DNA of 64,000 nucleotides from Escherichia phage vB_EcoM-pEB20. Each line of letters begins with the position of its first letter. Positions within the stretch are counted from its first letter, which is position 1. The stretch is taken from the sequence record OP114733. One strand, written 5' to 3'. Below, one piece after another: positions 28,911 through 46,376 of the stretch. The translations under genes were made by a program, and so were the position numbers. Under the pieces are notes generated by a model. It was not told the origin of the DNA and did not search any database. It saw only the letters and a program-made list of their open reading frames with translations.

Positions 28911-29468
28911 ATGACTGAACAAAAACCTAAAAATAACTATGTGAATAATAAAGAGCTTCTCGCCGCTATAATCGAGTGGAAAAAGGAGCTCTTAAATAAT
29001 AAAGACCCAAACAAAATTATTCGTCAGAATGATACCATCGGTTTAGCAATTATGCTTATCGCCGAAGGCCTGTCCAAACGTTTCAACTTTTCAGGATATA
29101 CCCAGTCTTGGAAGCAGGAGATGATTGCAGATGGGATTGAAGCCTCTATTAAGGGACTTCATAATTTCGACGAAACTAAGTACAATAACCCACATGCATA
29201 CATAACTCGAGCTTGTTTTAATGCTTTTGTCCAACGTATCAAAAAAGAACGTAAGGAAGTTGCAAAGAAATACAGTTACTTCGTTCATAATGTCTACGAC
29301 AGTCATGACGATGATATGGTAGCGTTGGTAGATGAAACGTTTATTCAAGACATCTACGATAAAATGACGCATTATGAAGAATCCGCTTATAAAGCTCCTG
29401 GGGCTGAAAAGAAGGAAGTTGTTAGCGATTCGCCTAGTTTGGATTTTTTATATGAGGATGACAATTGA
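28911..29468 (+). CDS. 55: late-transcription sigma factor gp55
   Basis: [50 protein letters not shown] resembles T4 gp55 as recalled; 185 aa. Confidence 0.9.
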
Positions 29469-29667
29469 CATCTCTAACTACTTAGAAGAACCTTTTGACG
29501 AAGCAATCCCTTATTTGGTAAAACTGTTGGGTCGGGAATTTAAAATTAATTTTGACATCGACCCTTTGAACCCACATGACGTGTCATTTTCGATAAATGG
29601 GACTCCGGTTGAGTATGAGTTCTGTATTGAAGAGGATGGACGTTTTTATTTTAATTTAATGAGATAA
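29452..29667 (+). CDS. hypothetical protein
   Basis: M27 of ORF 29374. Confidence 0.45.
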
Positions 29668-29668
29668 T

Positions 29669-29992
29669 ATGACTACCGAGATTATTGAAAATAAAGAAGC
29701 AGAAGATGCAGTAGCTAAAATGCTACAAGAAATCCAAAAGAAAAATGAAGCTGAAGCACGTAAAAAATCCGAAAAGATTCTTAAAAAGAATCGTTTTGAA
29801 CTAAACCGTCTTTATGCTCATGCTCAAGAAGCAGCAATTCAAAACAACTTCGAAGCTTACGAATATGCTATTAAGAAATCTCGGGATATTCTACGACAAC
29901 CATATAATGACAAGTTAATTAAAATCCAGTGGGTTACTACTCGTCAGGCTATTGAGGACATCATTAATGGCGCTAGTTCAAACAAAGTTTAA
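29669..29992 (+). CDS. hypothetical protein
   Basis: ORF track. Confidence 0.5.
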   Translation: MTTEIIENKEAEDAVAKMLQEIQKKNEAEARKKSEKILKKNRFELNRLYAHAQEAAIQNNFEAYEYAIKKSRDILRQPYNDKLIKIQWVTTRQAIEDIINGASSNKV

Positions 29993-30173
29993 ACGTCTGA
30001 AGCTGAACGCAGGGTTCACCCTTAAATTGGGAGGTCCTCTTTGTGTTAAAATTTCTGAAAAGGAATATCACGATGGTTCTATTACAGAAATTTGTCCGCC
30101 TATTGTAAAGGCAGACCCAAAACAACTTGTGTGGGTTGATTCATTTCAAGTTAAGAAATGGTGGAAACGATGA
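29967..30173 (+). CDS. hypothetical protein
   Basis: M6 of ORF 29952. Confidence 0.45.
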   Translation: MALVQTKFKRLKLNAGFTLKLGGPLCVKISEKEYHDGSITEICPPIVKADPKQLVWVDSFQVKKWWKR

Positions 30174-30212
30174 GAGAAATTGATTTAGGCATTTTCTGAG
30201 AGGTGCTTATGC

Positions 30213-30386
30213 ATGACGAACATCCCGACTTCTGAAAATTTCGATAAAATCCGTAAAGGCAAAGCAGAAAGAATGAGACGTTTTAAAGAGTCTTATGATA
30301 AAGCTAAAGCCGAAGGAACTATTACGTACAAGCCCATTCGATTTAAAAGTTCAAATGAGCCTCTGTACGGTGTACTATGTGGATAG
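30213..30386 (+). CDS. 57-aa basic protein at the position of T4 alpha-gt (below ORF-track cutoff)
   Basis: ATG after GAGAGGTG RBS; followed immediately by terminator. Confidence 0.4.
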   Translation: MTNIPTSENFDKIRKGKAERMRRFKESYDKAKAEGTITYKPIRFKSSNEPLYGVLCG

Positions 30387-30409
30387 GAACTCTTCGGAGT
30401 TCCTTTTTT
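30386..30409 (+). terminator. rho-independent terminator (UUCG tetraloop)
   Basis: GGAACTC-TTCG-GAGTTCC-TTTTTT. Confidence 0.7.
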
Positions 30410-30432
30410 GCTTTATAAACGGATGATAGAAT
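30409..30432 (+). promoter_or_regulatory. candidate MotA-type middle promoter for gene 47
   Basis: TGCTTTA box 30409-30415, about 11 nt, then TAGAAT. Confidence 0.3.
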
Positions 30433-30455
30433 GAATTAACTAATGAGGAAATAAT

Positions 30456-31475
30456 ATGAAAATTTTGCACTTAGGCGACTTCCATATCGGAGTCAAACAA
30501 GACGACCCATGGGTTCAAGATATTCAACGTGATGGTATTCGTCAAGCAATTGAATACTCTAAGAAACACGGGATTAAAACTTGGATTCAGTACGGTGATT
30601 GGTTTGACGTCCGTAAAGCAATAACACATCGTACAATGGAATTCAATCGTGAAATCGTTGATATGATTTCTAAAGCAGACATTCACGTTCATGTCACGAT
30701 AGGAAACCATGACATGGCGTTTAAGAATACAATAACACCTAACACTGTTTCTGAATTGTTAACTCAATTTGAAAACTTTACTATTTACGAGCATCCGACT
30801 ACTGTAGATTTTGATGGATGTCTGATTGATATCGTTCCATGGATGTGTGAAGAAAATACAGGTGAAATCTTAGAGCACATCAAGACTTCTTCTGCCGCAT
30901 ATTGTGTTGGTCACTGGGAATTAAATGGCTTCTATTTCTATAAAGGAATGAAGTCTCATGGGCTTGAACCTGATTTCTTAAAGACCTATAAACAAGTCTG
31001 GTCCGGCCACTTCCACACAATCTCTGAAGCTGCTAACGTCAAATATATTGGGACACCATGGACCCTTACTGCAGGCGATGAGAACGACCCACGCGGATTC
31101 TGGGTATTTGACACTGATGTTGAACATATGGAATTTATTCCTAATGAAACAACATGGCATCGACGAATCACTTATCCGTTTAAAGGCAAAATTAATTATT
31201 CTGATTATACTAATCTAGCCGTACGTGTTATAGTATCAGAAATTGATTCAGAGTTGACTAAGTTTGAATCTGAACTTGAAAAAGTAGTTCACTCTCTTCG
31301 TATGGTTTCTAAAGTTGATAACAGTGTTGAATCTGATGATGACCAGGAAATCGAGATTAAATCACTTCAAGATATCATTAAAGAATATATTGACGCGATT
31401 CCAGATATCTCAGACGAAGACAGAGAAGCGCTGGTCAAATATTCCAACGAACTTTATATTGAGGCAACACAATGA
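30456..31475 (+). CDS. 47: recombination nuclease subunit gp47 (Mre11-like)
   Basis: HLGDFH and GNHD phosphoesterase motifs; 339 aa; synteny with 46. Confidence 0.9.
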   Translation: MKILHLGDFHIGVKQDDPWVQDIQRDGIRQAIEYSKKHGIKTWIQYGDWFDVRKAITHRTMEFNREIVDMISKADIHVHVTIGNHDMAFKNTITPNTVSELLTQFENFTIYEHPTTVDFDGCLIDIVPWMCEENTGEILEHIKTSSAAYCVGHWELNGFYFYKGMKSHGLEPDFLKTYKQVWSGHFHTISEAANVKYIGTPWTLTAGDENDPRGFWVFDTDVEHMEFIPNETTWHRRITYPFKGKINYSDYTNLAVRVIVSEIDSELTKFESELEKVVHSLRMVSKVDNSVESDDDQEIEIKSLQDIIKEYIDAIPDISDEDREALVKYSNELYIEATQ

Positions 31476-31729
31476 CTTTAGATGAATTTAACAATGCTGG
31501 GCTCGGGCTTGAAGTTGAAATGGACGTTAAAGATGATGATGGATTCGAGAACACTATCAAGTATTGGATTGAACCATTACGTGTTGAAGGCAATGAAGTT
31601 AAAGCAGTTCATGTTTGTACCGACTGGGCTATTGAATTTAGCTTTAATATAATGGACAATGATACTCCTGGCTCTATTCTTAAAATGGCTGAAGCGTGTA
31701 TCGAGGATGCGTATAATGACGAAGACTGA
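31472..31729 (+). CDS. hypothetical acidic protein
   Basis: ORF track. Confidence 0.5.
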   Translation: MTLDEFNNAGLGLEVEMDVKDDDGFENTIKYWIEPLRVEGNEVKAVHVCTDWAIEFSFNIMDNDTPGSILKMAEACIEDAYNDED

Positions 31730-31955
31730 TTATGAAATCCATCGTCATGAATTTAGTATTGGTGACGGTTATATTGGTATTGTTGAATGGACTGAGAATT
31801 ACGAGGAATCAACTCCTCGTTTCTTTGGAACAATGTATGTTACCTGTGAGTATGCACCAGGTGTTGTTATGTATGCAGAACTAGATGAGTATTTTGCTGA
31901 TAGAGATGACATGTTAAAATATGTAGAGGACTTCATTCGAAGAGAATACATATGA
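31716..31955 (+). CDS. hypothetical protein
   Basis: M20 of ORF 31659 after GAGGA RBS. Confidence 0.45.
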   Translation: MTKTDYEIHRHEFSIGDGYIGIVEWTENYEESTPRFFGTMYVTCEYAPGVVMYAELDEYFADRDDMLKYVEDFIRREYI

Positions 31956-36080: not shown

Positions 36081-36644
36081 ATGAACTTATTTGATGATGA
36101 CGTCCAACTTAACGAGCACCAAATCGCATGGAAGTCTAATGACGCTGATGCGATTCAAAAATGTGCTGATATGTTTAAAGAAAAACCTGAGAATGAATTC
36201 TTTAAAATCATTAATGCTATTAATGAAAAGAAATCTATGTCAATTGCTCAGGTTGACTACTCAAAATTTATGGTTGAGAACTCATTATCCCAGTTCCCGG
36301 AATGTATGCCTGCAGTTTACATGATGAACTTGGTCGGCTCTGAATTAAGCGATGAAGCACACTTCAACTACATGATGGCCGCCATTCCGCGTGGTCGTCG
36401 ATTCTCTAAATGGGCTAAACTAGTTGAAGACACTTCAGAGTTACTAGTTATCAAACTGTTGATGAAACATTACATAATCAACATGAATGATGCCACCGAG
36501 TATAAGCGGCTCCTTGAAAAAAATAACAAGTTGCCAATAGTCCTTAAAGAACTGAAGGCCATGGTCACTGATGAGTTTCTCAAAGAAGTTACAAAAAATG
36601 TGAAAGAACAAAAACAATTTAAAAAATTAGCATTGGAATGGTAA
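36081..36644 (+). CDS. 62: clamp loader small subunit gp62
   Basis: 187 aa; between 44 and regA. Confidence 0.85.
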
Positions 36645-36646
36645 AA

Positions 36647-37015
36647 ATGATTGAAATTAAATTGAAGAACCCTGAAGATTTTCTGAAAGTCAAAGAGACT
36701 TTGACCCGTATGGGCATCGCTAATAACAAGGATAAAGTCCTTTATCAGTCCTGTCATATCCTCCAAAAGCAAGGTAAATATTACATCGTCCACTTTAAAG
36801 AAATGCTGCGAATGGACGGACGTCAGGTTGATATTGATGGTGAAGACTATCAGCGACGTGATTCGATTGCTCAGTTGCTTGAAGACTGGGGATTGATTGT
36901 TATTGAAGACTCTGCTCGTGAAGATCTGTTTGGCCTGACTAATAACTTCCGTGTTATCTCTTTTAAACAGAAAGATGACTGGACTTTGAAAGCAAAATAT
37001 ACAATTGGTAATTAA
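36647..37015 (+). CDS. regA: translational repressor RegA
   Basis: MIEIKLKNPEDFLKVKETLTRMGIANNKDKVLYQSCHILQK resembles T4 RegA as recalled. Confidence 0.9.
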   Translation: MIEIKLKNPEDFLKVKETLTRMGIANNKDKVLYQSCHILQKQGKYYIVHFKEMLRMDGRQVDIDGEDYQRRDSIAQLLEDWGLIVIEDSAREDLFGLTNNFRVISFKQKDDWTLKAKYTIGN

Positions 37016-37018
37016 AGC

Positions 37019-37038
37019 AATGGGACTTCGGTCCCATT
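37019..37038 (+). promoter_or_regulatory. 8-bp stem / UUCG-loop hairpin between regA and gene 43 (terminator or part of gp43 operator)
   Basis: AATGGGAC-TTCG-GTCCCATT, no U-run; 59 nt upstream of gp43 ATG. Confidence 0.4.
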
Positions 37039-37096
37039 TGGAGTATAATAAGTTCATCAACAAACAAAAGACAATAACTCGTCTAAAGGAAATTAA

Positions 37097-39808
37097 ATGA
37101 AAGAATTTTACTTAACGGTTGAACAGATTGGTGATTCAATTTTTGAACGTTACATCGATTCTAATGGCCGTGAACGTACTCGTGAAGTAGAATATAAACC
37201 ATCACTGTTTGCTCATTGTCCAGAAAGTCAGGCTACAAAATATTTCGATATCTACGGTAAGCCGTGTACTCGTAAGTTGTTCGCTAATATGCGTGATGCC
37301 TCCCAATGGATTAAACGCATGGAAGATATCGGACTTGAAGCACTTGGCATGGACGATTTCAAATTGGCGTATTTGTCTGACACTTATAACTATGAAATCA
37401 AATACGACCATACAAAAATTCGTGTGGCTAACTTCGACATCGAAGTAACATCTCCGGACGGGTTCCCTGAGCCGTCACAAGCAAAACATCCGATTGATGC
37501 TATCACCCATTATGACTCAATTGACGACAGGTTCTACGTATTTGATCTATTGAATTCTCCATATGGTAATGTAGAAGAATGGTCTATTGAAATCGCTGCT
37601 AAGCTTCAAGAACAAGGTGGTGATGAAGTTCCATCTGAAATTATCGATAAAATCATTTATATGCCGTTCGATAGCGAAAAAGAATTGTTGATGGAATATC
37701 TCAACTTCTGGCAACAGAAAACTCCTGTCATTTTGACTGGATGGAACGTTGAGTCATTTGATATTCCATATGTGTATAACCGAATCAAGAATATTTTTGG
37801 CGAATCTACTGCGAAACGTTTATCACCACATCGTAAAACTCGTGTTAAAGTTATCGAAAACATGTATGGTTCTCGTGAAATCATTACATTGTTCGGTATC
37901 TCTGTTCTTGATTACATTGACCTTTACAAAAAATTCTCTTTTACCAATCAACCGTCGTATTCTCTGGATTACATTTCAGAATTTGAATTGAACGTTGGTA
38001 AACTGAAATATGACGGCCCTATTTCTAAGCTTCGTGAAAGCAATCACCAACGATATATTTCTTATAACATTATCGACGTGTATCGTGTATTGCAAATTGA
38101 TGCTAAGCGTCAGTTCATCAACTTGAGCTTGGACATGGGTTATTATGCTAAGATACAGATTCAATCTGTGTTCAGCCCAATTAAAACATGGGATGCCATT
38201 ATTTTTAATAGCCTTAAAGAGCAGAACAAGGTGATTCCACAAGGTCGTTCTCACCCGGTTCAACCTTATCCTGGCGCTTTTGTTAAGGAACCTATTCCAA
38301 ATCGATACAAATATGTAATGAGTTTCGACCTTACATCTCTGTATCCAAGTATTATTCGCCAAGTGAATATTAGCCCGGAAACAATAGCAGGAACGTTTAA
38401 AGTAGCTCCACTGCATGATTATATTAACGCTGTTGCTGAACGTCCTTCAGATGTGTACAGTTGTTCTCCTAACGGCATGATGTATTATAAAGACCGTGAT
38501 GGTGTAGTTCCAACTGAAATCACTAAGGTCTTTAATCAACGTAAAGAACATAAAGGTTACATGCTTGCAGCTCAACGTAATGGTGAAATAATTAAAGAGG
38601 CATTGCATAATCCTAATCTTTCTGTTGACGAACCATTAGATGTTGATTATCGTTTCGACTTCAGCGATGAGATTAAAGAAAAGATTAAAAAGTTGTCTGC
38701 TAAATCTCTTAATGAAATGTTGTTTAGAGCTCAACGTACTGAAGTTGCAGGTATGACTGCACAAATTAACCGTAAATTGCTCATCAACTCACTTTATGGT
38801 GCACTTGGAAACGTTTGGTTCCGTTATTATGATTTGCGTAATGCTACTGCAATCACAACATTCGGGCAAATGGCTTTACAGTGGATTGAACGTAAAGTTA
38901 ATGAATATCTGAATGAGGTTTGTGGTACAGAAGGCGAAGCTTTCGTTCTATATGGTGATACAGACTCCATTTACGTATCTGCAGATAAAATTATTGATAA
39001 GGTTGGTGAATCTAAATTCCGTGATACCAACCATTGGGTAGACTTCTTAGATAAGTTCGCTCGTGAACGTATGGAACCAGCTATTGATAGAGGTTTCCGT
39101 GAAATGTGTGAATACATGAACAATAAACAACACTTAATGTTCATGGACCGAGAAGCTATCGCTGGGCCTCCGCTCGGTTCTAAAGGTATTGGTGGATTCT
39201 GGACTGGTAAGAAACGTTATGCATTAAACGTGTGGGATATGGAAGGTACTCGTTACGCTGAGCCTAAACTCAAAATCATGGGTCTCGAAACACAGAAATC
39301 TTCGACTCCTAAAGCAGTACAGAAAGCTCTTAAGGAATGTATTCGTCGTATGCTTCAAGAAGGTGAAGAATCATTACAAGAATATTTTAAAGAGTTTGAA
39401 AAAGAATTCCGTCAATTGAATTATATTAGCATCGCGTCGGTATCTTCTGCGAATAACATTGCTAAATATGACGTCGGTGGATTCCCTGGCCCCAAATGTC
39501 CGTTCCATATTCGTGGAATTCTGACATATAACCGGGCTATCAAAGGTAATATTGATGCTCCACAAGTTGTAGAAGGTGAAAAAGTATATGTTCTGCCTTT
39601 ACGTGAAGGAAACCCATTCGGTGATAAATGTATCGCATGGCCTTCTGGTACTGAAATCACAGATTTAATTAAAGACGACGTACTTCATTGGATGGACTAC
39701 ACTGTTCTCCTTGAGAAGACATTTATTAAACCACTTGAAGGATTCACATCAGCAGCGAAACTCGATTACGAGAAGAAAGCATCTCTGTTCGATATGTTCG
39801 ATTTTTGA
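37097..39808 (+). CDS. 43: DNA polymerase gp43 (family B)
   Basis: 903 aa; exo motifs FDIEV and YGDTDS; matches RB69 gp43 as recalled. Confidence 0.97.
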   Translation: MKEFYLTVEQIGDSIFERYIDSNGRERTREVEYKPSLFAHCPESQATKYFDIYGKPCTRKLFANMRDASQWIKRMEDIGLEALGMDDFKLAYLSDTYNYEIKYDHTKIRVANFDIEVTSPDGFPEPSQAKHPIDAITHYDSIDDRFYVFDLLNSPYGNVEEWSIEIAAKLQEQGGDEVPSEIIDKIIYMPFDSEKELLMEYLNFWQQKTPVILTGWNVESFDIPYVYNRIKNIFGESTAKRLSPHRKTRVKVIENMYGSREIITLFGISVLDYIDLYKKFSFTNQPSYSLDYISEFELNVGKLKYDGPISKLRESNHQRYISYNIIDVYRVLQIDAKRQFINLSLDMGYYAKIQIQSVFSPIKTWDAIIFNSLKEQNKVIPQGRSHPVQPYPGAFVKEPIPNRYKYVMSFDLTSLYPSIIRQVNISPETIAGTFKVAPLHDYINAVAERPSDVYSCSPNGMMYYKDRDGVVPTEITKVFNQRKEHKGYMLAAQRNGEIIKEALHNPNLSVDEPLDVDYRFDFSDEIKEKIKKLSAKSLNEMLFRAQRTEVAGMTAQINRKLLINSLYGALGNVWFRYYDLRNATAITTFGQMALQWIERKVNEYLNEVCGTEGEAFVLYGDTDSIYVSADKIIDKVGESKFRDTNHWVDFLDKFARERMEPAIDRGFREMCEYMNNKQHLMFMDREAIAGPPLGSKGIGGFWTGKKRYALNVWDMEGTRYAEPKLKIMGLETQKSSTPKAVQKALKECIRRMLQEGEESLQEYFKEFEKEFRQLNYISIASVSSANNIAKYDVGGFPGPKCPFHIRGILTYNRAIKGNIDAPQVVEGEKVYVLPLREGNPFGDKCIAWPSGTEITDLIKDDVLHWMDYTVLLEKTFIKPLEGFTSAAKLDYEKKASLFDMFDF

Positions 39809-39848: not shown

Positions 39849-40484
39849 ATGAAAACTACTCCTATTACTATCGCTATTGACGCAATTATAAAACAAGCTT
39901 CTTCTTTGGCCGCTATGGCCAAAGTAATTAGTCAAAACCCTGCTCGTTATAATGCTATTCTAGAAACTCTTCGACGCCCTGGACTTAGTAATTATGAAAG
40001 CCGGGTAATTATTACAGGTGTTGGTAAGAATGCTAATATCGCAACTAAAGCTTCCGAGACTTTTGCTTCACTCGGTATCCCGAGTATGTACTTGAACACT
40101 GGGCATTATTCTCACGGTGATGCAGGATTCATTGCGCCTAATGATGTGTTGATTCATATTAGTCGTTCTGGTAAAACTGAAGAAATGATAGGCGTGGCTA
40201 AGCATCTTAAAATGATTCGTCCGAATGTCAAACAGATTCTGTTGCATTGTAACCCAGACATTCCACAAGAAAATGAAGCCCTTTTTGATTACTCTTTCTG
40301 TACAGGCATCGCGGTAGAGGTTGATGAGAATTCTCTGGCTCCGACTATGTCCACTACATTGTTGTTAGCGCTTATCGATACGTTTGCTATCAACCTTTCG
40401 TCTGAGCGTGGATTTACCTCTAATGACTTCCTTAAGTTCCATCCAGGCGGTGCACTAGGTGCCATGTTACGAGGCGAACAATGA
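39849..40484 (+). CDS. SIS-domain sugar-phosphate isomerase (KdsD/GutQ-like arabinose-5-phosphate isomerase core, no CBS domains)
   Basis: VIITGVGKNANIATK, HGDAGF, LAPTMSTT, FHPGGALGAML match KdsD SIS domain pattern. Confidence 0.7.
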   Translation: MKTTPITIAIDAIIKQASSLAAMAKVISQNPARYNAILETLRRPGLSNYESRVIITGVGKNANIATKASETFASLGIPSMYLNTGHYSHGDAGFIAPNDVLIHISRSGKTEEMIGVAKHLKMIRPNVKQILLHCNPDIPQENEALFDYSFCTGIAVEVDENSLAPTMSTTLLLALIDTFAINLSSERGFTSNDFLKFHPGGALGAMLRGEQ

Positions 40485-40624
40485 AAGCAATAACAATAGG
40501 ACTTTTACTATTGATGCTTGTCATGACTATCTACTGGAGCTTAACGGCTCCAGTAATGATTCCAACACTTGTAATTGGATGGATTATGATTGGACTACAA
40601 GCAAAGTATGAATGCTTTAACTAG
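40481..40624 (+). CDS. 47-aa two-TM membrane peptide (below ORF-track cutoff)
   Basis: ATGA overlap with SIS gene stop. Confidence 0.35.
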   Translation: MKAITIGLLLLMLVMTIYWSLTAPVMIPTLVIGWIMIGLQAKYECFN

Positions 40625-40665
40625 AATAGTGTACAATACTCCTACTTACCAATGAGGACTTCAAC

Positions 40666-42351
40666 ATGAAAAAAGCTGTTATTCTTGGTGCTGGACTGGC
40701 AACTCGTTTGTATCCAATAACGCACCATATTCCTAAGGTGCTTGTTAACTATAAACAAGACACTATTCTAAGCAATTTGTATACAATTTATTCTGACCTT
40801 GGCGCAGATGAAATTATTGTAGTAGTTCATTCAAAATTTGCTGAAACTGTTCGAGCTTATTGTGAGCAAGAAGGGTTCAATGTGACTATTCGTACAGTTG
40901 ATGAAGCGTATGGTTCTGCTTATGCTCTTGCTAAATTACACAAAGATTTAGACGGCCATAATGTAATTGTTAACTGGTGTGATATTATTCCTGATTTTGG
41001 TTCATGGTCTTGGAATGTTAACGCAATCTATGTTAAGGGTGACGAATGTCGATATAATTTCGACGGTGAAAATATCACTAACGTAGGTTCAACAGGTGGT
41101 AATGTTGTAGGAATTTATCAGTTCAAAGACTGGGAATTCTATATGGGTTCTACTGATGAGGAAATTCATGAATACTGCAAAGGACGTGATTTCGTAGAAT
41201 TCCTTTACGGCAGCGCATTCAATAAATCAGAGCTTATGAATCTAATTGATTTAGGTGATATGCCTAAACTTGAAAAAGCTCATGAAGTTCGTGAACTTAA
41301 TCGTAGTTTTAATGCAGTTGAAATTGGTGAAGAAACTGTAACTAAATTCGCATTAACCGAACAGGGTCGAGCTCTTCAGAAAGATGAGATTTCATGGTAT
41401 CTTAAAGTGAAATCAGATTCAGTTCCTCAGTTAGTTTCGGTAAATGAAAATAATTTTGAAATGGAACGTATTAAAGGTAAGCCGGCATTTGAATATATTA
41501 AATCCAAATCAAGTCTTGCTCGTCCACAAATTGTTGATGCAATTTTAGATGCACTGAAATTCAGCACAGACACTTATTTTGTAAGTCCTGAAACTGTTCG
41601 TCGTGATTTCACTAAAGAGTTCTATACGAAAGTTATTGATCGTTGTGAAAGCATTCAACCATTGATTGATTCATTTGGTAAAATCACACATGTGAACTAC
41701 ACTAAGATTGGACGTCTGAAGCCAATGCTGAAACAAGCTTTAGAACACCTTATTCGTTATCATAACCGTTCTCAGGGACAGTACTCTGTTATTCATGGTG
41801 ACCCGAACTTCAGTAATACTATGATTACTGATAACGGCGAAGTCAAGTTTATAGACCCTCGTGGATATTTTGGCGAAACCAAGATTTATGGGCCAAAATT
41901 GTATGATGAAGCTAAAGTGCTTTATGCTGTTTCAGGATATGATGAATTCAATGCTAATCCGACCTGGGGACAGTTTACTATTGATGAAACAACTTGTAAT
42001 GTGACTATTAACATCAATCCATTAGTTTACAAATATGGAAAGATGAGTTCGTTTAACGAGTATCATCATTTGGCTGTAGCAATTATCTGGATTGCATTAG
42101 GTGGTTATTTCAAGAATAATCCACTTAAAGCGGTAGCCGCATATTATAAAGGTATGGAACTTCTGACTAAGCAATTACGTAACATGGGCCGTGTACTTCA
42201 GGACGGCTCTATTAGTTATGACGTAGCAGAACCTGTAACGGCTACTCTGATTACAAAAAATCCTGGTAAATGGGTACTAACTGATAAAGAAACCGGTGTT
42301 TCCTATCGTCCAATCGGTGGCGATATCACTCATCAATGGGAACGAATTTAA
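40666..42351 (+). CDS. bifunctional sugar-1-phosphate nucleotidyltransferase (N) / sugar kinase of APH-ChoK fold (C)
   Basis: N-terminal GAGLATRLYPIT (RmlA-like); C-terminal HGDPNFSN...IDPRG (Brenner motif plus metal-binding Asp). Confidence 0.7.
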   Translation: MKKAVILGAGLATRLYPITHHIPKVLVNYKQDTILSNLYTIYSDLGADEIIVVVHSKFAETVRAYCEQEGFNVTIRTVDEAYGSAYALAKLHKDLDGHNVIVNWCDIIPDFGSWSWNVNAIYVKGDECRYNFDGENITNVGSTGGNVVGIYQFKDWEFYMGSTDEEIHEYCKGRDFVEFLYGSAFNKSELMNLIDLGDMPKLEKAHEVRELNRSFNAVEIGEETVTKFALTEQGRALQKDEISWYLKVKSDSVPQLVSVNENNFEMERIKGKPAFEYIKSKSSLARPQIVDAILDALKFSTDTYFVSPETVRRDFTKEFYTKVIDRCESIQPLIDSFGKITHVNYTKIGRLKPMLKQALEHLIRYHNRSQGQYSVIHGDPNFSNTMITDNGEVKFIDPRGYFGETKIYGPKLYDEAKVLYAVSGYDEFNANPTWGQFTIDETTCNVTININPLVYKYGKMSSFNEYHHLAVAIIWIALGGYFKNNPLKAVAAYYKGMELLTKQLRNMGRVLQDGSISYDVAEPVTATLITKNPGKWVLTDKETGVSYRPIGGDITHQWERI

Positions 42352-42716
42352 TGCAACTATGCTTCGATGTCGATGATTGTATAACCGAATGGAATAACAA
42401 TCGTGATTACGCTAATTTTAAACCGGACCTAGAAATGGTGGCAGCCATTAATGCCTTGTATGACGCAGGGCATACCATCACGCTTTACACTGCTCGTGGT
42501 ATGAAGTCTGTAGGTCCTGGACGTATTGCTGTAGATATCCTACCAGGTCTGTTACAGAACTTAGCTAACATTGGTTTGAAGTATCATAATTTGCTAACAC
42601 ATAAACCAGTATATGATTGGATTATCGACGACAAAGCTATGCGTCCTGACGAATTCAAAGCTCTTATGAATAAAGGCGAATTCGAAACATTTAAATCATA
42701 TAAACCAAATCTATAA
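42351..42716 (+). CDS. small HAD-superfamily phosphatase
   Basis: N-terminal FDVDDCIT (DxD motif I), ITLYTARG, WIIDDKAM; TAATG coupling to upstream gene. Confidence 0.6.
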   Translation: MQLCFDVDDCITEWNNNRDYANFKPDLEMVAAINALYDAGHTITLYTARGMKSVGPGRIAVDILPGLLQNLANIGLKYHNLLTHKPVYDWIIDDKAMRPDEFKALMNKGEFETFKSYKPNL

Positions 42717-42762
42717 TAATTTAAGTAAGACCTGCAAAAACCGTCGCATCAATTAACGCGAG

Positions 42763-43932
42763 ATGCAAAAAATGAATACTTTTAAAATTGGAACGAATTT
42801 CGATTTAGCTCTTCTTGATAAAATCGTAGAGCTCAATAAAACTTATCCTAATAGCTTGATAAATGAAGTATACGGCTCTACAAGAGAAATGGCTTTTGTA
42901 GCAGCCAGACCTGATTTTAGGCTTCCTGACGTTGACAAAAAGATGTTAGAAGACTACGTTAAACGTTGTAACGAATTAGGTATTTGCTTTAACTATACAC
43001 TCAACACGATAAATCCTGGTTCAAAAAGAGAACTAGTTGAGTGGAAGAAGAAAGCTATTCAGGATTATGTTCAGTATCTTTGGTCAATAGGCGTATGGCG
43101 TATTACTATCGCTAACCCTGTTGTTATGGAAATTGTTCGTGAAGTCAATAAAGACATTGAGATTGAAGTTTCAACAATTCTACATGTCGATGCTGTAACT
43201 CAAATCAAATACTTGCATGACCAGTATAATATCAAAAAGGTCTGCTGTGGAATTCATAAGAACCGTTCAGTTTCTTTCCTGAAGCGTGCAGCAGAGTTTT
43301 GCAATAAGAACAATATAATATTTGAAGTTCTTGTAAATGAGTTCTGTTCTAATGCTGGTAAAGGGTATACAACACATTGTAGCTATCGTGACTCTTGCTA
43401 TATTTTCCATAGTACTGATGTTACAGCTGATGATGCTAAATCCTTAAACGGATATCCTATGCAGCACTGTATTAAAGCTCGTGATACAGACCCATTTAAC
43501 TGGTTGAGAACTCGTTTTGTTCGTCCTCAAGATTTGAAACTTTATAATGATATTGGTATCACTCAATTTAAAGTTTCAGGACGTACAGGTAGCACAGACT
43601 ACATTTTGAAAGTTCTTGAAGCATACGCTTCTGAAAAGTTTGAAGGTAATTTGTTAGAACTGTGGAAGCCTTTAGAGACTATTTTCACTCTTGAAAACGA
43701 AACTGAGTTTTCACATACGGTAAATATTGAAACCTCTTTGTTAGACGGCTTTTTAGAAAAAAGGTGGTTCAGACATCCAGATTTCGATTGTGCTAATGAA
43801 ATCTGCGGGACGACGTGTACATATTGTGAAAGATATTATAAACGTCAGTTATCTAAAAATGGGTTATCAGAAAACTCTATATCTATTATTGATATAACTA
43901 ACTCTGATGACGCTTTGAGGTACCCGGAATGA
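42763..43932 (+). CDS. Cys-rich enzyme of unknown function (C-terminal CX4CX3CX2C); candidate Fe-S protein or transferase
   Basis: ORF track; CANEICGTTCTYC near C-terminus. Confidence 0.55.
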   Translation: MQKMNTFKIGTNFDLALLDKIVELNKTYPNSLINEVYGSTREMAFVAARPDFRLPDVDKKMLEDYVKRCNELGICFNYTLNTINPGSKRELVEWKKKAIQDYVQYLWSIGVWRITIANPVVMEIVREVNKDIEIEVSTILHVDAVTQIKYLHDQYNIKKVCCGIHKNRSVSFLKRAAEFCNKNNIIFEVLVNEFCSNAGKGYTTHCSYRDSCYIFHSTDVTADDAKSLNGYPMQHCIKARDTDPFNWLRTRFVRPQDLKLYNDIGITQFKVSGRTGSTDYILKVLEAYASEKFEGNLLELWKPLETIFTLENETEFSHTVNIETSLLDGFLEKRWFRHPDFDCANEICGTTCTYCERYYKRQLSKNGLSENSISIIDITNSDDALRYPE

Positions 43933-44168
43933 TTTCTAGAAAAACTTTTAACCACCAACTTAATGAAGAGATTTTGACTATAAAACTGAACACTAACGAA
44001 CAAATTCTTAAAAAGGCCCTGATGGGCCTGTTTGAAACTAAAGCGGCTAAAGTGATTAAAGAACCTGTTCAATTGGAATACTACGCTGATGCATTTCTTC
44101 ATAGTGTTCTTGGAAGTATCGATGCTGAAGCTTTACGTTATATCAACATTGTCAAGAAATTCAAATAA
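43929..44168 (+). CDS. hypothetical protein
   Basis: ORF track. Confidence 0.5.
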   Translation: MISRKTFNHQLNEEILTIKLNTNEQILKKALMGLFETKAAKVIKEPVQLEYYADAFLHSVLGSIDAEALRYINIVKKFK

Positions 44169-44210
44169 GCTTTACGAATTGAGTATATAATAAATTGTAT
44201 TGAGGTAAAC

Positions 44211-44927
44211 ATGGGAAAACATAACACAATGAAATATATCAAAGCCGCAGATTTTCAAACCGCATTTAAAGCAGTCAATCGTGAAATTTTAGAAAACCCG
44301 GAATTCGTAACTGATTCTCGTATTGGACGTTGTAATGAAATTGGGTCTATGACAGTAGTTGTTGACACTCCATCATCATTCAAAATGACCGACCCACGTA
44401 TTAACCGCATCTCTTATGAATATGCCGAAGACTTCTGGAAGTTTATGATTTCTGGTGGTACCAACGCAGAAGAAGCGTTTAAGGCATATCCTAATGTCGC
44501 TAAATTTATTTCTAAACCAAAATCAGATGTTTTGCCGGCGAACTTCAACACTTTCTATGGTCCTCGCATTGCGGCCCAATTACCAGCTCTTCTAAAAGAA
44601 CTTAAAGAGAAGCCTAACTCTCGAAGAGTTGTGTTCCAAATTCTAGAAAGTTCTGATCAGGCTTTGCTTGATTCAGACGAAACGCTTGAATATCCATGTA
44701 CTGACTCAGTGACTTATTATATTCGTGATGGTAAGCTTTATACCCACTGTCATATGCGTTCTCAGAACTGTGCTGTTGTTATGCAGTTGGATTTTTATCT
44801 CCAAGGAAAATTACTTCATTATATCGCTAACGAATGCGGTGTAGAAGTTGGTGATTATACTCATACCATGGTAAGTGCCCATGTGTTTGAACGTGATTTT
44901 GATTATGTTAAAGGATTCCTTGACTAA
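44211..44927 (+). CDS. 42: thymidylate-synthase-fold pyrimidine hydroxymethylase (gp42-like dCMP hydroxymethylase)
   Basis: NSRR..PCTDSVTYYIRDGKL..HMRSQN pattern parallels T4 gp42 active-site region as recalled; position between 43 and uvsX. Confidence 0.6.
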   Translation: MGKHNTMKYIKAADFQTAFKAVNREILENPEFVTDSRIGRCNEIGSMTVVVDTPSSFKMTDPRINRISYEYAEDFWKFMISGGTNAEEAFKAYPNVAKFISKPKSDVLPANFNTFYGPRIAAQLPALLKELKEKPNSRRVVFQILESSDQALLDSDETLEYPCTDSVTYYIRDGKLYTHCHMRSQNCAVVMQLDFYLQGKLLHYIANECGVEVGDYTHTMVSAHVFERDFDYVKGFLD

Positions 44928-45826
44928 TGGCTATTTTCCGCGTACCTATCTTGAGTATGCGGTCTTATGAAACTGGACAGTATGCTATCCTTAAGGATGG
45001 CAACTTCCAACTTCATTTGCACCGTGCTAATCCGGGTGATGTGATTACATATCCACGTAATGCATCTGATATTAAAGAATGCGAACGTCTTTTCCCAGAA
45101 TTTAAGTTTGTTCCGTTATGGTATAAAGATAACGCATATAATACTCGTAAATATTTCTGGTCTGAAAATGAATTTGTAGTTGATTCGTTGATTGCTTATT
45201 ATGATTGTGATTTTCTCATCACGGATATCACTGGATATGATGGTGCTTTTGACGTAGAATTCAATTTCAATATCACTGCAGACCCTAATAAACCACGTTT
45301 TTATATTGACGAATTCTTAAAAACTGATATGTTGTCGGTTAATCGTTCACTTCAAACTACTGTGTTGAATGAACGTCAAAAAGAAGTGCTGGTTAACGCA
45401 GGTGCAGATGGTAATAAGATTATCGTAACGCAGAAAGTTATACGTCCTTCCATCATGCAGCGTCTTGTAGGTGATTTGGCTCCTATTCATCTAGATGGTA
45501 TTTTTCATCCATTTCGAATTAGTGACCCGTGCTATCGTTTTGAACAAGTGGTTGAATGTGCAATTCAATTAGGCCAACCGCTTTATATAACCGATCCAAA
45601 TAATAGCTTCGACAGAAATAAGTATCCTGAAGAAGCACTGATTCGAATTTTTAAACCAACTAAAACTGAGTACTATCAAATTCTTAAAGGACGTCCGAAG
45701 ATTCAATATTTCGAAAATCCTGAAGAAGTATTCCATCCAGGTCTTGGTGAGTTCATCTACTTTAACGCTTTAATTTCTTCGCCGTATAATATACCTAAAT
45801 ATGAAGATGTCGTAATCGAGGAATAA
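44927..45826 (+). CDS. hypothetical 299-aa protein at beta-gt position; candidate DNA glycosyltransferase
   Basis: ORF track; no motif recognised; synteny only. Confidence 0.5.
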   Translation: MAIFRVPILSMRSYETGQYAILKDGNFQLHLHRANPGDVITYPRNASDIKECERLFPEFKFVPLWYKDNAYNTRKYFWSENEFVVDSLIAYYDCDFLITDITGYDGAFDVEFNFNITADPNKPRFYIDEFLKTDMLSVNRSLQTTVLNERQKEVLVNAGADGNKIIVTQKVIRPSIMQRLVGDLAPIHLDGIFHPFRISDPCYRFEQVVECAIQLGQPLYITDPNNSFDRNKYPEEALIRIFKPTKTEYYQILKGRPKIQYFENPEEVFHPGLGEFIYFNALISSPYNIPKYEDVVIEE

Positions 45827-45827
45827 A

Positions 45828-46376
45828 ATGGCTAAAATTATTTTAGTAGATGGCCCGGATAATGCTGGTAAAACAACTTTCATTAATGACATAATGGAAA
45901 TTAGTGAAAGATATGTAAAGATTGATTTCCCTAAACGAACAGTTGATGGGCGTTTCGATGTTAAGTCTCGAAATGAAGTTGGCTGTTTCGAAACGATGTT
46001 GAATTATTTAGACCCTACTAAGATTTATCTGTTAGACCGTGGATATATTAGTAACTGGGTTTATGGACGTATTCGACAAGATGCGGACTCGATTCTTGAC
46101 GTTTATGAACAGGACTATGTTCGTCTTTGCCAAAACCATGATGTGTTCACAATTATTTTAACACGTAACGAAATGACTGAAAGTTTTGAAGACGACCTTA
46201 TTACTTTGTCTTCACTCAGTTTCAATACAGTCATTTCACATTTTGAAGAGTTTGCAATTCATAACAAAATCCAAACGTATCAATTACTTAATCATGATGG
46301 TGCTAACAAAGTTATAGGATTTAATGCAAGCGAACGTAATTATTTGATTACAGAAATTATCAAATGGGCTCGTTAA
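45828..46376 (+). CDS. P-loop (deoxy)nucleotide/nucleoside kinase-like
   Basis: Walker A GPDNAGKTT; LLDRGYISNWVYG resembles dNK/TMPK DR motif. Confidence 0.6.
   Translation: MAKIILVDGPDNAGKTTFINDIMEISERYVKIDFPKRTVDGRFDVKSRNEVGCFETMLNYLDPTKIYLLDRGYISNWVYGRIRQDADSILDVYEQDYVRLCQNHDVFTIILTRNEMTESFEDDLITLSSLSFNTVISHFEEFAIHNKIQTYQLLNHDGANKVIGFNASERNYLITEIIKWAR

Follow-up and report, generated by a model that had tools for sequence, protein, structure and literature searches.

Genes and regulatory signals between genes 55 and 47 of a Mosigvirus phage, at a locus without a-gt

Genes of the interval

The DNA examined here, referred to as the window, is a 64,000-nucleotide stretch of Escherichia phage vB_EcoM-pEB20 (record OP114733). 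It belongs to the genus Mosigvirus (the RB69 group) and shares 99% identity with the Mosigvirus phages NBG1 and mar005P1. The upstream anchor of the locus is gene 55 for the late sigma factor (28911-29468, plus strand, as are all genes and signals of the locus described here), identified by tblastn through 91% identity to residues 1-182 of T4 gp55 (E 3e-114), and the NBG1 annotation agrees. It is followed by orthologs of a-gt.5 (29458-29667, 69 aa; E 1e-14 with T4 a-gt.5 by tblastn; Pfam DUF5491, 49.5 bits; PHROG 1169), a-gt.4 (29669-29992, 107 aa; E 2e-32 with T4 a-gt.4 by tblastn; Pfam DUF2654, 96.6 bits) and a-gt.3 (29967-30173, 68 aa; 71% identity to T4 a-gt.3 by tblastn, E 2e-29; PHROG 1648), and then by a 57-aa ORF, a-gt.2 (30213-30386, from an ATG start to a TAG stop, included in these coordinates). 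The downstream anchor is gene 47 (30456-31475), which encodes an SbcD/Mre11-like nuclease subunit with 75% identity to T4 gp47 over 339 aa (PHROG 100; Pfam Metallophos); a Shine-Dalgarno sequence, GAGGA, can be read at 30445-30449, 6 nt ahead of its ATG at 30456. Since a-gt.5, a-gt.4 and a-gt.3 occupy 29458-30173, there are four ORFs between genes 55 and 47, and the original prediction of a single 57-aa ORF in this interval was wrong.

The gap between a-gt.2 and gene 47 consists of 69 bp of regulatory DNA, and nothing else lies at the a-gt position in the window. Relative to T4, the a-gt cassette and 47.1 are missing; tblastn searches with T4 47.1 and mobB found no match in the window or in NBG1, so these T4 neighbours of a-gt have left no remnant there. 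A scan of 29800-30800 against Rfam (E <= 1) returned no family. Two further ORFs, at 30295-30426 (plus strand, 43 aa) and 30375-30470 (minus strand, 31 aa), were rejected because of their overlap with the regulatory spacer and with the conserved reading frame of a-gt.2.

The same gene order (55, a-gt.5, a-gt.4, a-gt.3, a-gt.2, 47) is found in RB69 (NC_004928, with the a-gt.2 to gene 47 interval at 39991-40234), where the 69-bp spacer differs from that of the window at one base, giving a -10 element of TAAAAT rather than TAGAAT. About 146 records of RB69-like phages contain 80% or more of the 2.8-kb locus as one uninterrupted match, and the window shows no difference of substance from them; it is one more member of the group. 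The locus was already known: the RB69 annotation names the ORF a-gt.2 and shows no a-gt, and the literature of 2018 and 2026 covers it. The finding therefore carries little weight as a discovery, and its value is practical, for annotation.

The a-gt.2 product is a 6.6-kDa basic protein (pI 9.8; 13 K+R against 7 D+E), and a GAGG lies 9 nt 5' of its ATG. It shares 74-76% amino acid identity with T4 a-gt.2 (NP_049675; tblastn E 3e-24), is identical to the RB69 gene annotated under that name, and matches PHROG 2140 and Pfam DUF5486 (PF17588), the latter over residues 9-57 with 97.3 bits (E 4.5e-28), above the gathering threshold of 27. In T4, as in the window, the gene follows a-gt.3 and has a hairpin directly 3' of its stop codon. 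The two proteins have in common the C-terminal motif AEGTITYK-I-F-SSNEPLYGVLCG, and the N-terminus of the T4 protein is 6 residues longer. Downstream of a-gt.2, T4 has mobB and a-gt, whereas the window has gene 47.

A dN/dS of 0.09-0.14 over 46 codons (window compared with T2, RB51 and T4) indicates purifying selection, and the residues invariant in the alignment include E34, G35, I37, Y39 and K40. Homologs formed 35 clusters among 5.8 billion proteins, all of them with PF17588, and the few with a named source came from T4-like phages or E. coli records. Thus a-gt.2 is a real gene under selection, and its family, DUF5486, is confined to T4-like phages. An AlphaFold2 model built on a 23-sequence alignment shows a helix (residues 6-34) and a beta-hairpin, with modest confidence (mean pLDDT 67, pTM 0.38). 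A literature search on the gene name a-gt.2 returned no papers. The protein may be a small early binder of nucleic acid or of a host protein.

A novel ORF that had taken the place of a-gt, as the original prediction suggested, would be easy to suppose, as the 57-aa ORF directly precedes gene 47, in the place that a reader recalling only the order 55, a-gt, 47 would assign to a-gt. However, synteny refutes such a gene replacement. The position of a-gt.2, between a-gt.3 and the a-gt/47 region, is the same in T4, T2, RB51, RB69, JS10, VR7, PEi20 and Mineola; a-gt.2 coexists with a-gt, side by side, in T2, RB51, T4 and the Klebsiella phage Mineola, and the a-gt position itself holds only the 69 bp of regulatory DNA. 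Replacement is therefore almost certainly not what happened here. Comparison of the T4 and RB69 maps upholds the lack of a-gt relative to T4, but it identifies the ORF as a-gt.2, in the order seen in RB69. The proper label is a-gt.2 (DUF5486), and the ORF should not be treated as a stand-in for a-gt.

The terminator hairpin and the middle promoter

The spacer begins with an intrinsic terminator, identified by a terminator scan and by folding (30386-30409). Its hairpin, GGAACTC-TTCG-GAGTTCC (30386-30403), has a stem of 7-8 bp closed by a C(UUCG)G tetraloop, and the stem shares its first base with the end of the a-gt.2 stop codon; a T6 tract follows at 30404-30409. In a 51-nt context the hairpin folds at -13.9 kcal/mol (z = -3.2), and none of 200 shuffled sequences folded as well. 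Equivalent hairpins with different stem sequences are present at eight other sites, and the nine sites in all fold at -9.2 to -12.6 kcal/mol. The stems GGAACTC, GGAGC, GGAAGC, GGGAC, AAAGGGC and GGGCC are each perfectly paired with their own 3' arm, which amounts to compensatory conservation of the hairpin in relatives. Furthermore, a terminator is annotated at this position in the GenBank record of NBG1. The arrangement, a hairpin followed by six U at the a-gt.2 stop codon, suggests that the element terminates transcription in vivo, and it would end or attenuate transcription arriving from upstream.

The hairpin could instead act mainly as a stabiliser of the mRNA 3' end, or as a processing barrier, for the upstream message, with gene 47 depending for most of its expression on read-through from promoters further upstream. 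C(UUCG)G hairpins were reportedly first noted in intercistronic regions of T4, by Tuerk and colleagues in 1988, and are said to be unusually stable, which counts towards a stabilising role. So does the finding that the orthologous hairpin 3' of a-gt.2 is followed in T2 and T4 by UAUAUU, with no U run, and conservation of the hairpin therefore does not require termination. Against this stand the six U found directly after the hairpin in the window, RB69, JS10 and VR7, the canonical signature of an intrinsic terminator, together with the independent terminator annotation in NBG1 and the consensus middle promoter immediately 3' of the hairpin. A role confined mainly to stabilisation or processing is thus improbable, and termination is the reading adopted here.

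The predicted middle promoter starts within the terminator. Its MotA box, TTTTGCTTTA (30406-30415), overlaps the T tract, and TGCTTTA (30409-30415) with the three T before it matches the MotA consensus, (a/t)(a/t)(a/t)TGCTTtA, at 10 of 10 positions, so that the U tract of the terminator would double as the A/T-rich 5' part of the box. A -10 element, TAGAAT, is read at 30427-30432; it matches TATAAT at 5 of 6 positions, and the 11-bp spacer that separates it from the MotA box agrees with the rule of 12 +/- 1 bp. The consensus, the spacing rule and the T4 promoter positions used here are those of Hinton 2010 (PMC2988021). JS10 and VR7, like RB69, have TAAAAT at the -10 position. Motifs of the form TGCTTTA-N10-13-TANNNT occur 10 times in the window, compared with 1.45 expected. 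The three features that were originally predicted, a basic 57-aa ORF, a UUCG terminator and TGCTTTA, were thus all confirmed by the isoelectric point, the fold and the full match to the MotA box.

The genes for MotA and AsiA lie outside the window, and both are found in NBG1 (MotA_activ 137 bits, along with MotCF; AsiA 111 bits). The MotA box of the window aligns with those of the mapped T4 promoters PmobB/Pa-gt.1 and P47. Counting from their -10 elements places the +1 of the right and left T4 modules at 36576 and 38681, respectively, and the mapped starts are 36576 for P47 and 38682 for PmobB (Pa-gt.1) (PMC2988021, Table 1). This orthology suggests that the promoter is active in the phage, where MotA and AsiA would redirect the host RNA polymerase to restart transcription near 30439, the predicted transcript start, for genes 47, 46.2, 46.1 and 46.

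Glucosylation and arabinosylation of the DNA

With a-gt and b-gt of T4 and ba-gt of T2 as queries, tblastn found no homolog in the window (best E 1.3, 4.8 and 8.7). For the genome outside the window, the 99%-identical NBG1, the closest complete genome, was examined as a stand-in for the phage itself; its remaining ~105 kb also gave no match to a-gt, b-gt or ba-gt (best E 0.038, for a 69-aa stretch). The prediction that a-gt is absent from this locus is borne out, and a homolog elsewhere, which would have counted against the absence of glucosylation, was not found in the rest of NBG1. Homologs of a-gt occur in 657 phage records; among the matches listed, those with at least 90% identity are from T4-like coliphages and their relatives, and those at ~66% are from Klebsiella and Raoultella phages.

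The DNA of RB69 contains arabinose and no glucose (PMC6024577; PMC13326640). Thomas et al. 2018 reported that RB69 is without homologs of a-gt, b-gt and ba-gt and carries arabinose in place of glucose, and Lee et al. 2026 refined the modified base to arabinosylated 5-hydroxycytosine. The RB69 arabinosylation cluster was located by tblastn in the window at 39849-46376, including a putative arabinosyltransferase gene at 44927-45826, and the RB69 transferase ORF003c is retained in NBG1 with 98.6% identity. With gene functions taken from PMC6024577 and PMC13326640, the pathway here would comprise a ThyA-like 5-hydroxy-dCMP synthase, UDP-arabinose synthesis and arabinosyltransferases, as opposed to the hydroxymethyl/glucose pathway of T4. 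Homologs of the arabinosylation genes gp48, gp47:46 and gp53:52 are present in JS10, and none was found in the first 31.7 kb of VR7. The missing a-gt and the arabinose-type cytosine chemistry of this phage are consistent with one another.

The original conclusion, that glucosylation is absent from this phage, holds in one sense, because neither the window nor the rest of NBG1 has a homolog of a-gt, b-gt or ba-gt. It fails if extended to glycosylation in general, because the window carries the RB69 arabinosylation cluster. In this respect, a lack of a-gt must not be taken to mean unmodified or unglycosylated DNA, a distinction that bears on the predicted sensitivity of Mosigvirus phage therapy candidates to restriction, CRISPR and type IV systems.

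Along with the regulatory elements, these findings very probably identify the interval as the 3' end of the Mosigvirus string 55 - a-gt.5 - a-gt.4 - a-gt.3 - a-gt.2, with a terminator and the middle promoter of gene 47 behind it, in a phage that lacks a-gt and carries the RB69 pathway of arabinosylation. The gene identities, synteny, motif matches, folding and lack of glucosyltransferase homologs are the part of this reading that was computed directly.

The stem-loop/promoter module and the a-gt site

The pairing of stem-loop and middle promoter recurs at this locus in other T4-like phages. Two modules bracket a-gt in T2, T4 and Mineola, and a single module is present at the empty site of the window, JS10, VR7 and PEi20; RB69, too, has this locus without a-gt. 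Aligned with the solo modules of JS10 and VR7, the window module is identical at 44 of 52 and 45 of 52 positions, respectively; the figures are 40 of 54 for the left module of T2 and 24 of 26 for the promoter core of the right T2 module. It is the single-copy form of an element of which Tequatrovirus and Jiaodavirus have one copy on each side of a-gt. As the module is doubled around a-gt in the glucosylating genera, the window represents the unoccupied form of the a-gt cassette site, a form that Dhakavirus, Gaprivervirus and Kanagawavirus share. The placement of a-gt between two paralogous terminator/middle-promoter modules, with one at empty sites, offers a small and tidy example of how accessory genes are packaged in T-even phages.

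Recombination in or close to the modules apparently accounts for the presence or absence of a-gt, and it could have acted in either direction, as gain or as loss. Loss, which is plausible at somewhat below even chances, supposes that the Mosigvirus lineage once had a-gt between two modules as in T4 and Mineola, and that homologous recombination within or close to the repeats removed it together with 47.1, after or during a switch from 5-hydroxymethyl/glucose to 5-hydroxy/arabinose chemistry, leaving the solo module as a scar. The presence of a-gt at an identical locus in two genera supports this, with 67% amino acid identity between T4 and Mineola, close to that of the flanking core genes (71% for 47, 79% for 55), as vertical descent predicts. 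Moreover, in gene 55 and a-gt.2-.4, T4 is nearer to Mosigvirus than to Mineola, so that under vertical descent Mosigvirus would have to have lost a-gt. Both genera that carry a-gt possess the direct-repeat modules that such a deletion requires, and deletion with mini-circle formation has been demonstrated experimentally for PeSL cassettes (PMC2839356). However, about four independent losses would be needed (Mosigvirus, Dhakavirus/Gaprivervirus, Kanagawavirus and Karamvirus), and the 69-bp spacer is without any remnant of a-gt or 47.1. The solo modules also have a 5'UTR like that of the left T2 copy joined directly to the start codon of 47 or 47.1, a product that crossover between left and right promoter cores would not yield.

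Gain is a serious candidate of similar standing, again a little short of an even chance. Here a single module without a-gt would be ancestral for the Tevenvirinae, and a-gt with a duplicated module would have been inserted in Tequatrovirus and Jiaodavirus by one gain followed by lateral transfer by way of the conserved flanks. Empty sites are more common than occupied ones (Mosigvirus, Dhakavirus, Gaprivervirus and Kanagawavirus), and the solo modules unite features that are split between the T2 copies, the right one alone keeping the CGGA spacer and the left one alone the AACCAA-SD 5'UTR. Recombination is active in the a-gt region, for example in the insertion of the T4 homing-endonuclease gene mobB beside a-gt, and a-gt is mosaic between T4 and T2 within flanks that are 97-100% identical. 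A replacement of the T4/T2 cassette bounded by the modules was considered and rejected, as the divergence is patchy within a-gt. Against gain, the identity of a-gt between T4 and Mineola does not exceed the values for the genes on either side, which makes any transfer an old one, and either the same site was used twice or the gene passed across phages of different hosts.

A more speculative proposal, which we regard as possible but doubtful, is that a-gt forms a self-contained expression cassette between two stem-loop/MotA-promoter modules (a 'PmSL' pair), with the single module of the window as its empty attachment site, and that the type of DNA sugar in the Tevenvirinae was switched by gain or loss of such cassettes through recombination at or near the modules. 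If true, the mini-circle mechanism of PeSL elements would reach as far as a middle-promoter module, and would involve a gene whose anti-restriction role is known. When the 64-kb window was scanned strictly for composites of a hairpin with a MotA promoter, only one was found on the coding strand, and no dispersed family of cassettes is claimed for this reason. A composite on the minus strand (37019-37038) proved coincidental; it is in reality a plus-strand UUCG hairpin upstream of gene 43. Compared with JS10 and T2, the boundaries of the indel appear to run from start codon to start codon and less from module to module, an imperfect fit to simple recombination between the two modules.

Among known systems, the module resembles the T4 promoters PmobB (Pa-gt.1) and P47, with which it shares a CUUCGG hairpin, (T)GCTTTA, a spacing of 11-12 bp and TAnAAT. 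The neighbours are also alike, with a-gt.2 upstream and 47 downstream, but T4 has two modules that enclose a-gt (and mobB) and the window has one, whose hairpin is longer in the stem and is followed by a complete U6 tract. T4 a-gt itself (PDB 1XV5; GT-B fold) shares only a genomic address with this site, the a-gt.2-to-47 interval that it occupies in T4, T2 and Mineola; in contrast, the glycosyltransferases of the RB69 group are arabinose-specific candidates at other loci (PMC6024577; PMC13326640). A further parallel is provided by the PeSL and PmSL cassettes of T4-type phages (Arbiol et al. 2010, PMC2839356; Comeau et al. 2014, PMC4122927), of which PmSL, the middle-promoter version, was described in vibriophage nt-1. 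The module differs from PeSL in that the strict scan of the window did not find many near-identical dispersed copies, and in that the indel boundaries do not neatly match the modules. Like PeSL and PmSL elements, it combines, within an intergenic spacer, a terminator stem-loop with a promoter immediately 3' of it, and it is linked to a gene-sized presence/absence polymorphism among related phages, in this case that of a-gt.

Gene content between genes 55 and 47

The original prediction described this interval, the site of the alpha-glucosyltransferase gene (a-gt) in T4, as an a-gt locus replaced by a single 57-aa ORF and a strong terminator. Comparison with the T4 and RB69 maps confirms that a-gt is absent relative to T4, as in RB69, but nothing has been replaced: the basic ORF at 30213-30386 (ATG start; coordinates are on the + strand unless stated) is the ortholog of a-gt.2, which coexists with a-gt in T4. 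Nor is it alone, as homology and the annotation of the complete relative vB_EcoM_NBG1 (NBG1) place orthologs of a-gt.5 (29458-29667), a-gt.4 (29669-29992), and a-gt.3 (29967-30173) before it. With T4 a-gt.2 as the query, tblastn matches 30225-30383 at 76% identity (E 3e-24), Pfam places the ORF in DUF5486 (97 bits; cutoff 27) and PHROGs in phrog_2140, and the identical gene in RB69 is annotated as a-gt.2. On these grounds, the ORF was rejected both as a novelty and as a replacement for a-gt.

The encoded protein (pI 9.8; 13 K + R versus 7 D + E) matched only 35 clusters among 5.8 billion proteins, all with PF17588, and the few of these with source names are T4-like phages or E. coli records. 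Its dN/dS of 0.09-0.14 (versus T2, RB51, and T4) indicates purifying selection. An AlphaFold2 model of modest confidence (23 homologs; pLDDT 67) contains a long helix (6-34) and a beta-hairpin, and we infer that the product may be a small protein of the early or middle period whose binding partner is nucleic acid or a host factor. Homologs in AP018814 (T6), MW239124 (CkP1), NC_048798 (Marfa), and Citrobacter phage CF1 are labelled 'prohead core protein protease' or 'head maturation protease', almost certainly a mis-annotation; the a-gt.2 core matches the 62-aa family PHROG 17354 (E 2e-14), from which the label appears to spread. The homolog in Klebsiella phage Mineola is extended at its N-terminus by a Cys-rich (CxxC...CxxC) stretch, which the coliphage versions lack.

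T2 and RB51 (Tequatrovirus) share the order 55, a-gt.5,.4,.3,.2, a-gt, 47.1, 47; T4, of the same genus, has this order too, except that mobB, a homing-endonuclease gene, separates a-gt.2 from a-gt. Mineola (Jiaodavirus) has an a-gt about 66-67% identical to that of T4 in the corresponding position. a-gt.2 directly adjoins 47 in RB69 and the window (Mosigvirus), VR7 (Gaprivervirus), and PEi20 (Kanagawavirus), and 47.1-47 in JS10 (Dhakavirus); CkP1 (Karamvirus) has an unrelated 110-aa ORF in the a-gt position. Compared with T2, ~1.4 kb is missing from the window, made up of a-gt, the regulatory spacer following it, and 47.1; gene 47 starts with ATG at 30456, downstream of GAGGA at 30445-49. Between 47 and 46 are two small overlapping ORFs, at 31472-31729 and about 31716-31955 in NBG1 annotation, the second appearing as 31659-31955 in the window ORF list. 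They correspond to 46.2 and 46.1 (annotated in T4 and RB69 as a DUF5487 family protein), in ordinary conserved synteny.

A 2.8-kb stretch around the locus matches NBG1 and mar005P1 (Mosigvirus, the RB69 group) over its full length at 99.0% identity, and at least 80% of it is covered in one piece by 146 phage records; a 25-kb stretch further along the window matches the same group at ~98% identity. The window is antiparallel to the NBG1 record, corresponding to roughly 6.1-70.1 kb. Annotations of RB69 and more than 100 relatives already cover the locus, and the DNA modification biology is already published.

Hairpin and middle promoter after a-gt.2

The ORF list, a terminator scan, and consensus matching recovered the basic ORF and the regulatory motifs exactly where they had been predicted. 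The hairpin GGAACTC-TTCG-GAGTTCC (30386-30403) is directly followed by a T6 tract (30404-30409), and a terminator is annotated at the corresponding place in the NBG1 GenBank record. In context, it folds at -13.9 kcal/mol (z = -3.2), with 0 of 200 shuffles as stable; an Rfam search of the locus region found no family. The TGCTTTA at 30409-30415, with its three preceding T, fully matches the 10-nt MotA-box consensus (a/t)(a/t)(a/t)TGCTTtA, for which a -10 element is expected 12 +/- 1 bp downstream (Hinton 2010, PMC2988021); TAGAAT (30427-32) lies 11 bp past it, inside this rule. Across the window, TGCTTTA-N10-13-TANNNT occurs 10 times against 1.45 expected. The MotA and AsiA genes lie outside the window and are found in NBG1 (Pfam 137 and 111 bits, respectively).

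From these motifs and from orthology, transcripts running from 55 through a-gt.5 to a-gt.2 would be terminated or attenuated at the C(UUCG)G hairpin and U6, and MotA and AsiA would restart transcription near 30439 into genes 47, 46.2, 46.1, and 46. A second C(UUCG)G hairpin, AATGGGAC-TTCG-GTCCCATT (37019-37038, + strand), occupies the regA-gene 43 spacer, immediately before the gene for DNA polymerase, and is adjoined by a minus-strand motif resembling a MotA box. This hairpin may act as a terminator or may belong to the translational operator region of gene 43.

Reading the spacers of the compared genomes side by side was the most informative step. In all of them, a-gt.2 is followed by a stable hairpin, whose loop is UUCG in most cases, and then by (T)GCTTTA, 11-12 bp, and TAnAAT; T2, T4, and Mineola have a second module of the same architecture after a-gt. 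Stem sequences vary between sites (for example GGAACTC/GAGTTCC, GGAGC/GCTCC, GGAAGC/GCTTCC, GGGAC/GTCCC, AAAGGGC/GCCCTTT, and GGGCC/GGCCC), pairing is perfect in each, and the folds at all nine sites range from -9.2 to -12.6 kcal/mol. The window module is closest to the single ('solo') modules at the a-gt-less sites of JS10 (44/52) and VR7 (45/52); it matches the T2 left copy at 40/54 and the T2 right promoter core at 24/26. Counted from sequence, the T4 -10 elements place +1 at 36576 (right module) and 38681 (left module), in agreement with the experimentally identified middle promoters P47 at 36576 and PmobB (Pa-gt.1) at 38682 (Hinton 2010, PMC2988021), and the window module is therefore the putative counterpart of mapped MotA-dependent T4 promoters. 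In Mineola (L017 2174-2515), a-gt is annotated from 2447, a start that takes in both the MotA box and the hairpin; its T4-like N-terminus, MKINILMARGLEGCGV, begins at 2501.

Predicted arabinosylation without glucosyltransferases

Glucosylation had been predicted to be absent, and tblastn with T4 a-gt, T4 b-gt, and T2 ba-gt found no homolog in the window (best E 1.3, 4.8, and 8.7) or in the NBG1 sequence beyond the window (~105 kb), used as a stand-in for the rest of the genome (best E 0.038 over 69 aa). The same is true of RB69, which has no homolog of these genes and whose DNA carries arabinose, not glucose (Thomas et al. 2018, PMC6024577). The original interpretation is partly supported: a-gt and glucosylation are missing, yet the gene content predicts DNA that is heavily glycosylated, arabinosylated and not bare.

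The complete RB69 cluster ORF045-055 is present at 39849-46376 (+ strand; 93-100% identity). By homology, it includes genes for an arabinose-5-phosphate isomerase (39849-40484), a 561-aa nucleotidyltransferase/kinase fusion (RB69 ORF53:52; 40666-42351), a ThyA-like (thymidylate-synthase-like) protein (44211-44927) that is 99% identical to RB69 ORF048c and only 25% to T4 gp42, and a 299-aa counterpart of RB69 gp46:47 (ORF47:46; 44927-45826), the proposed first arabinosyltransferase. The 561-aa and 299-aa ORFs are each uninterrupted, which supports the published view that sequencing errors account for their splits in the RB69 reference. RB69 ORF003c, the second candidate transferase, is located beyond the window and is 98.6% conserved in NBG1. 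Since the ThyA-like RB69 protein makes 5-hydroxy-dCMP, not 5-hydroxymethyl-dCMP (Lee et al. 2026, PMC13326640), the modified base of this phage group would differ from that of T4.

Cytosine chemistry and the state of the a-gt site go together, with the search covering one part each of JS10 and VR7. In JS10 (empty site; 1-33500), homologs of RB69 gp48, gp47:46, gp45, gp51, and gp53:52 were found, and ORF003c and the isomerase were not. Searching VR7 (empty site; 1-31700) yielded no homolog of gp42/gp48 and no transferase; between uvsX and gene 43 there is no gp42/gp48 homolog or glycosyltransferase, and the dCTPase gene 56 is kept.

History of the locus

Loss of a-gt from Mosigvirus and its acquisition by Tequatrovirus and Jiaodavirus are given equal weight. 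Loss is favoured by the T4-Mineola identity of a-gt (67%), comparable with the values for genes 47 (71%) and 55 (79%), and by most flanking genes of T4 being nearer to Mosigvirus than to Mineola. Acquisition draws on the empty site being the commoner state, and on the solo modules combining features that are partitioned between the two T2 copies. Between T4 and T2, the flanking 55, a-gt.5-.3, and 47 are 97-100% identical, and a-gt (T4 coordinates 36900-37700) has patches of just 68-87% identity, with mobB upstream in T4 alone; a-gt of these phages is a mosaic produced by recombination, in which homing-endonuclease activity may have had a part.

The modules can be compared with PeSL cassettes, in which a stem-loop directly before a promoter flanks genes that vary among related T4-type phages; those with a middle promoter are termed PmSL, and neighbouring copies have been shown to give rise to deletions and mini-circles (Arbiol et al. 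2010, PMC2839356; Comeau et al. 2014, PMC4122927). The fit is imperfect. A strict scan of the window coding strand found no further hairpin and MotA-promoter composite, the boundaries of the a-gt indel resemble start codon to start codon and not module to module, and the T4/T2 divergence is patchy within a-gt and not module-bounded. The likeness lies in a-gt being bracketed by two modules, with one module at empty sites, and this packaging of a-gt between paired modules is the sole mildly new angle on the locus.
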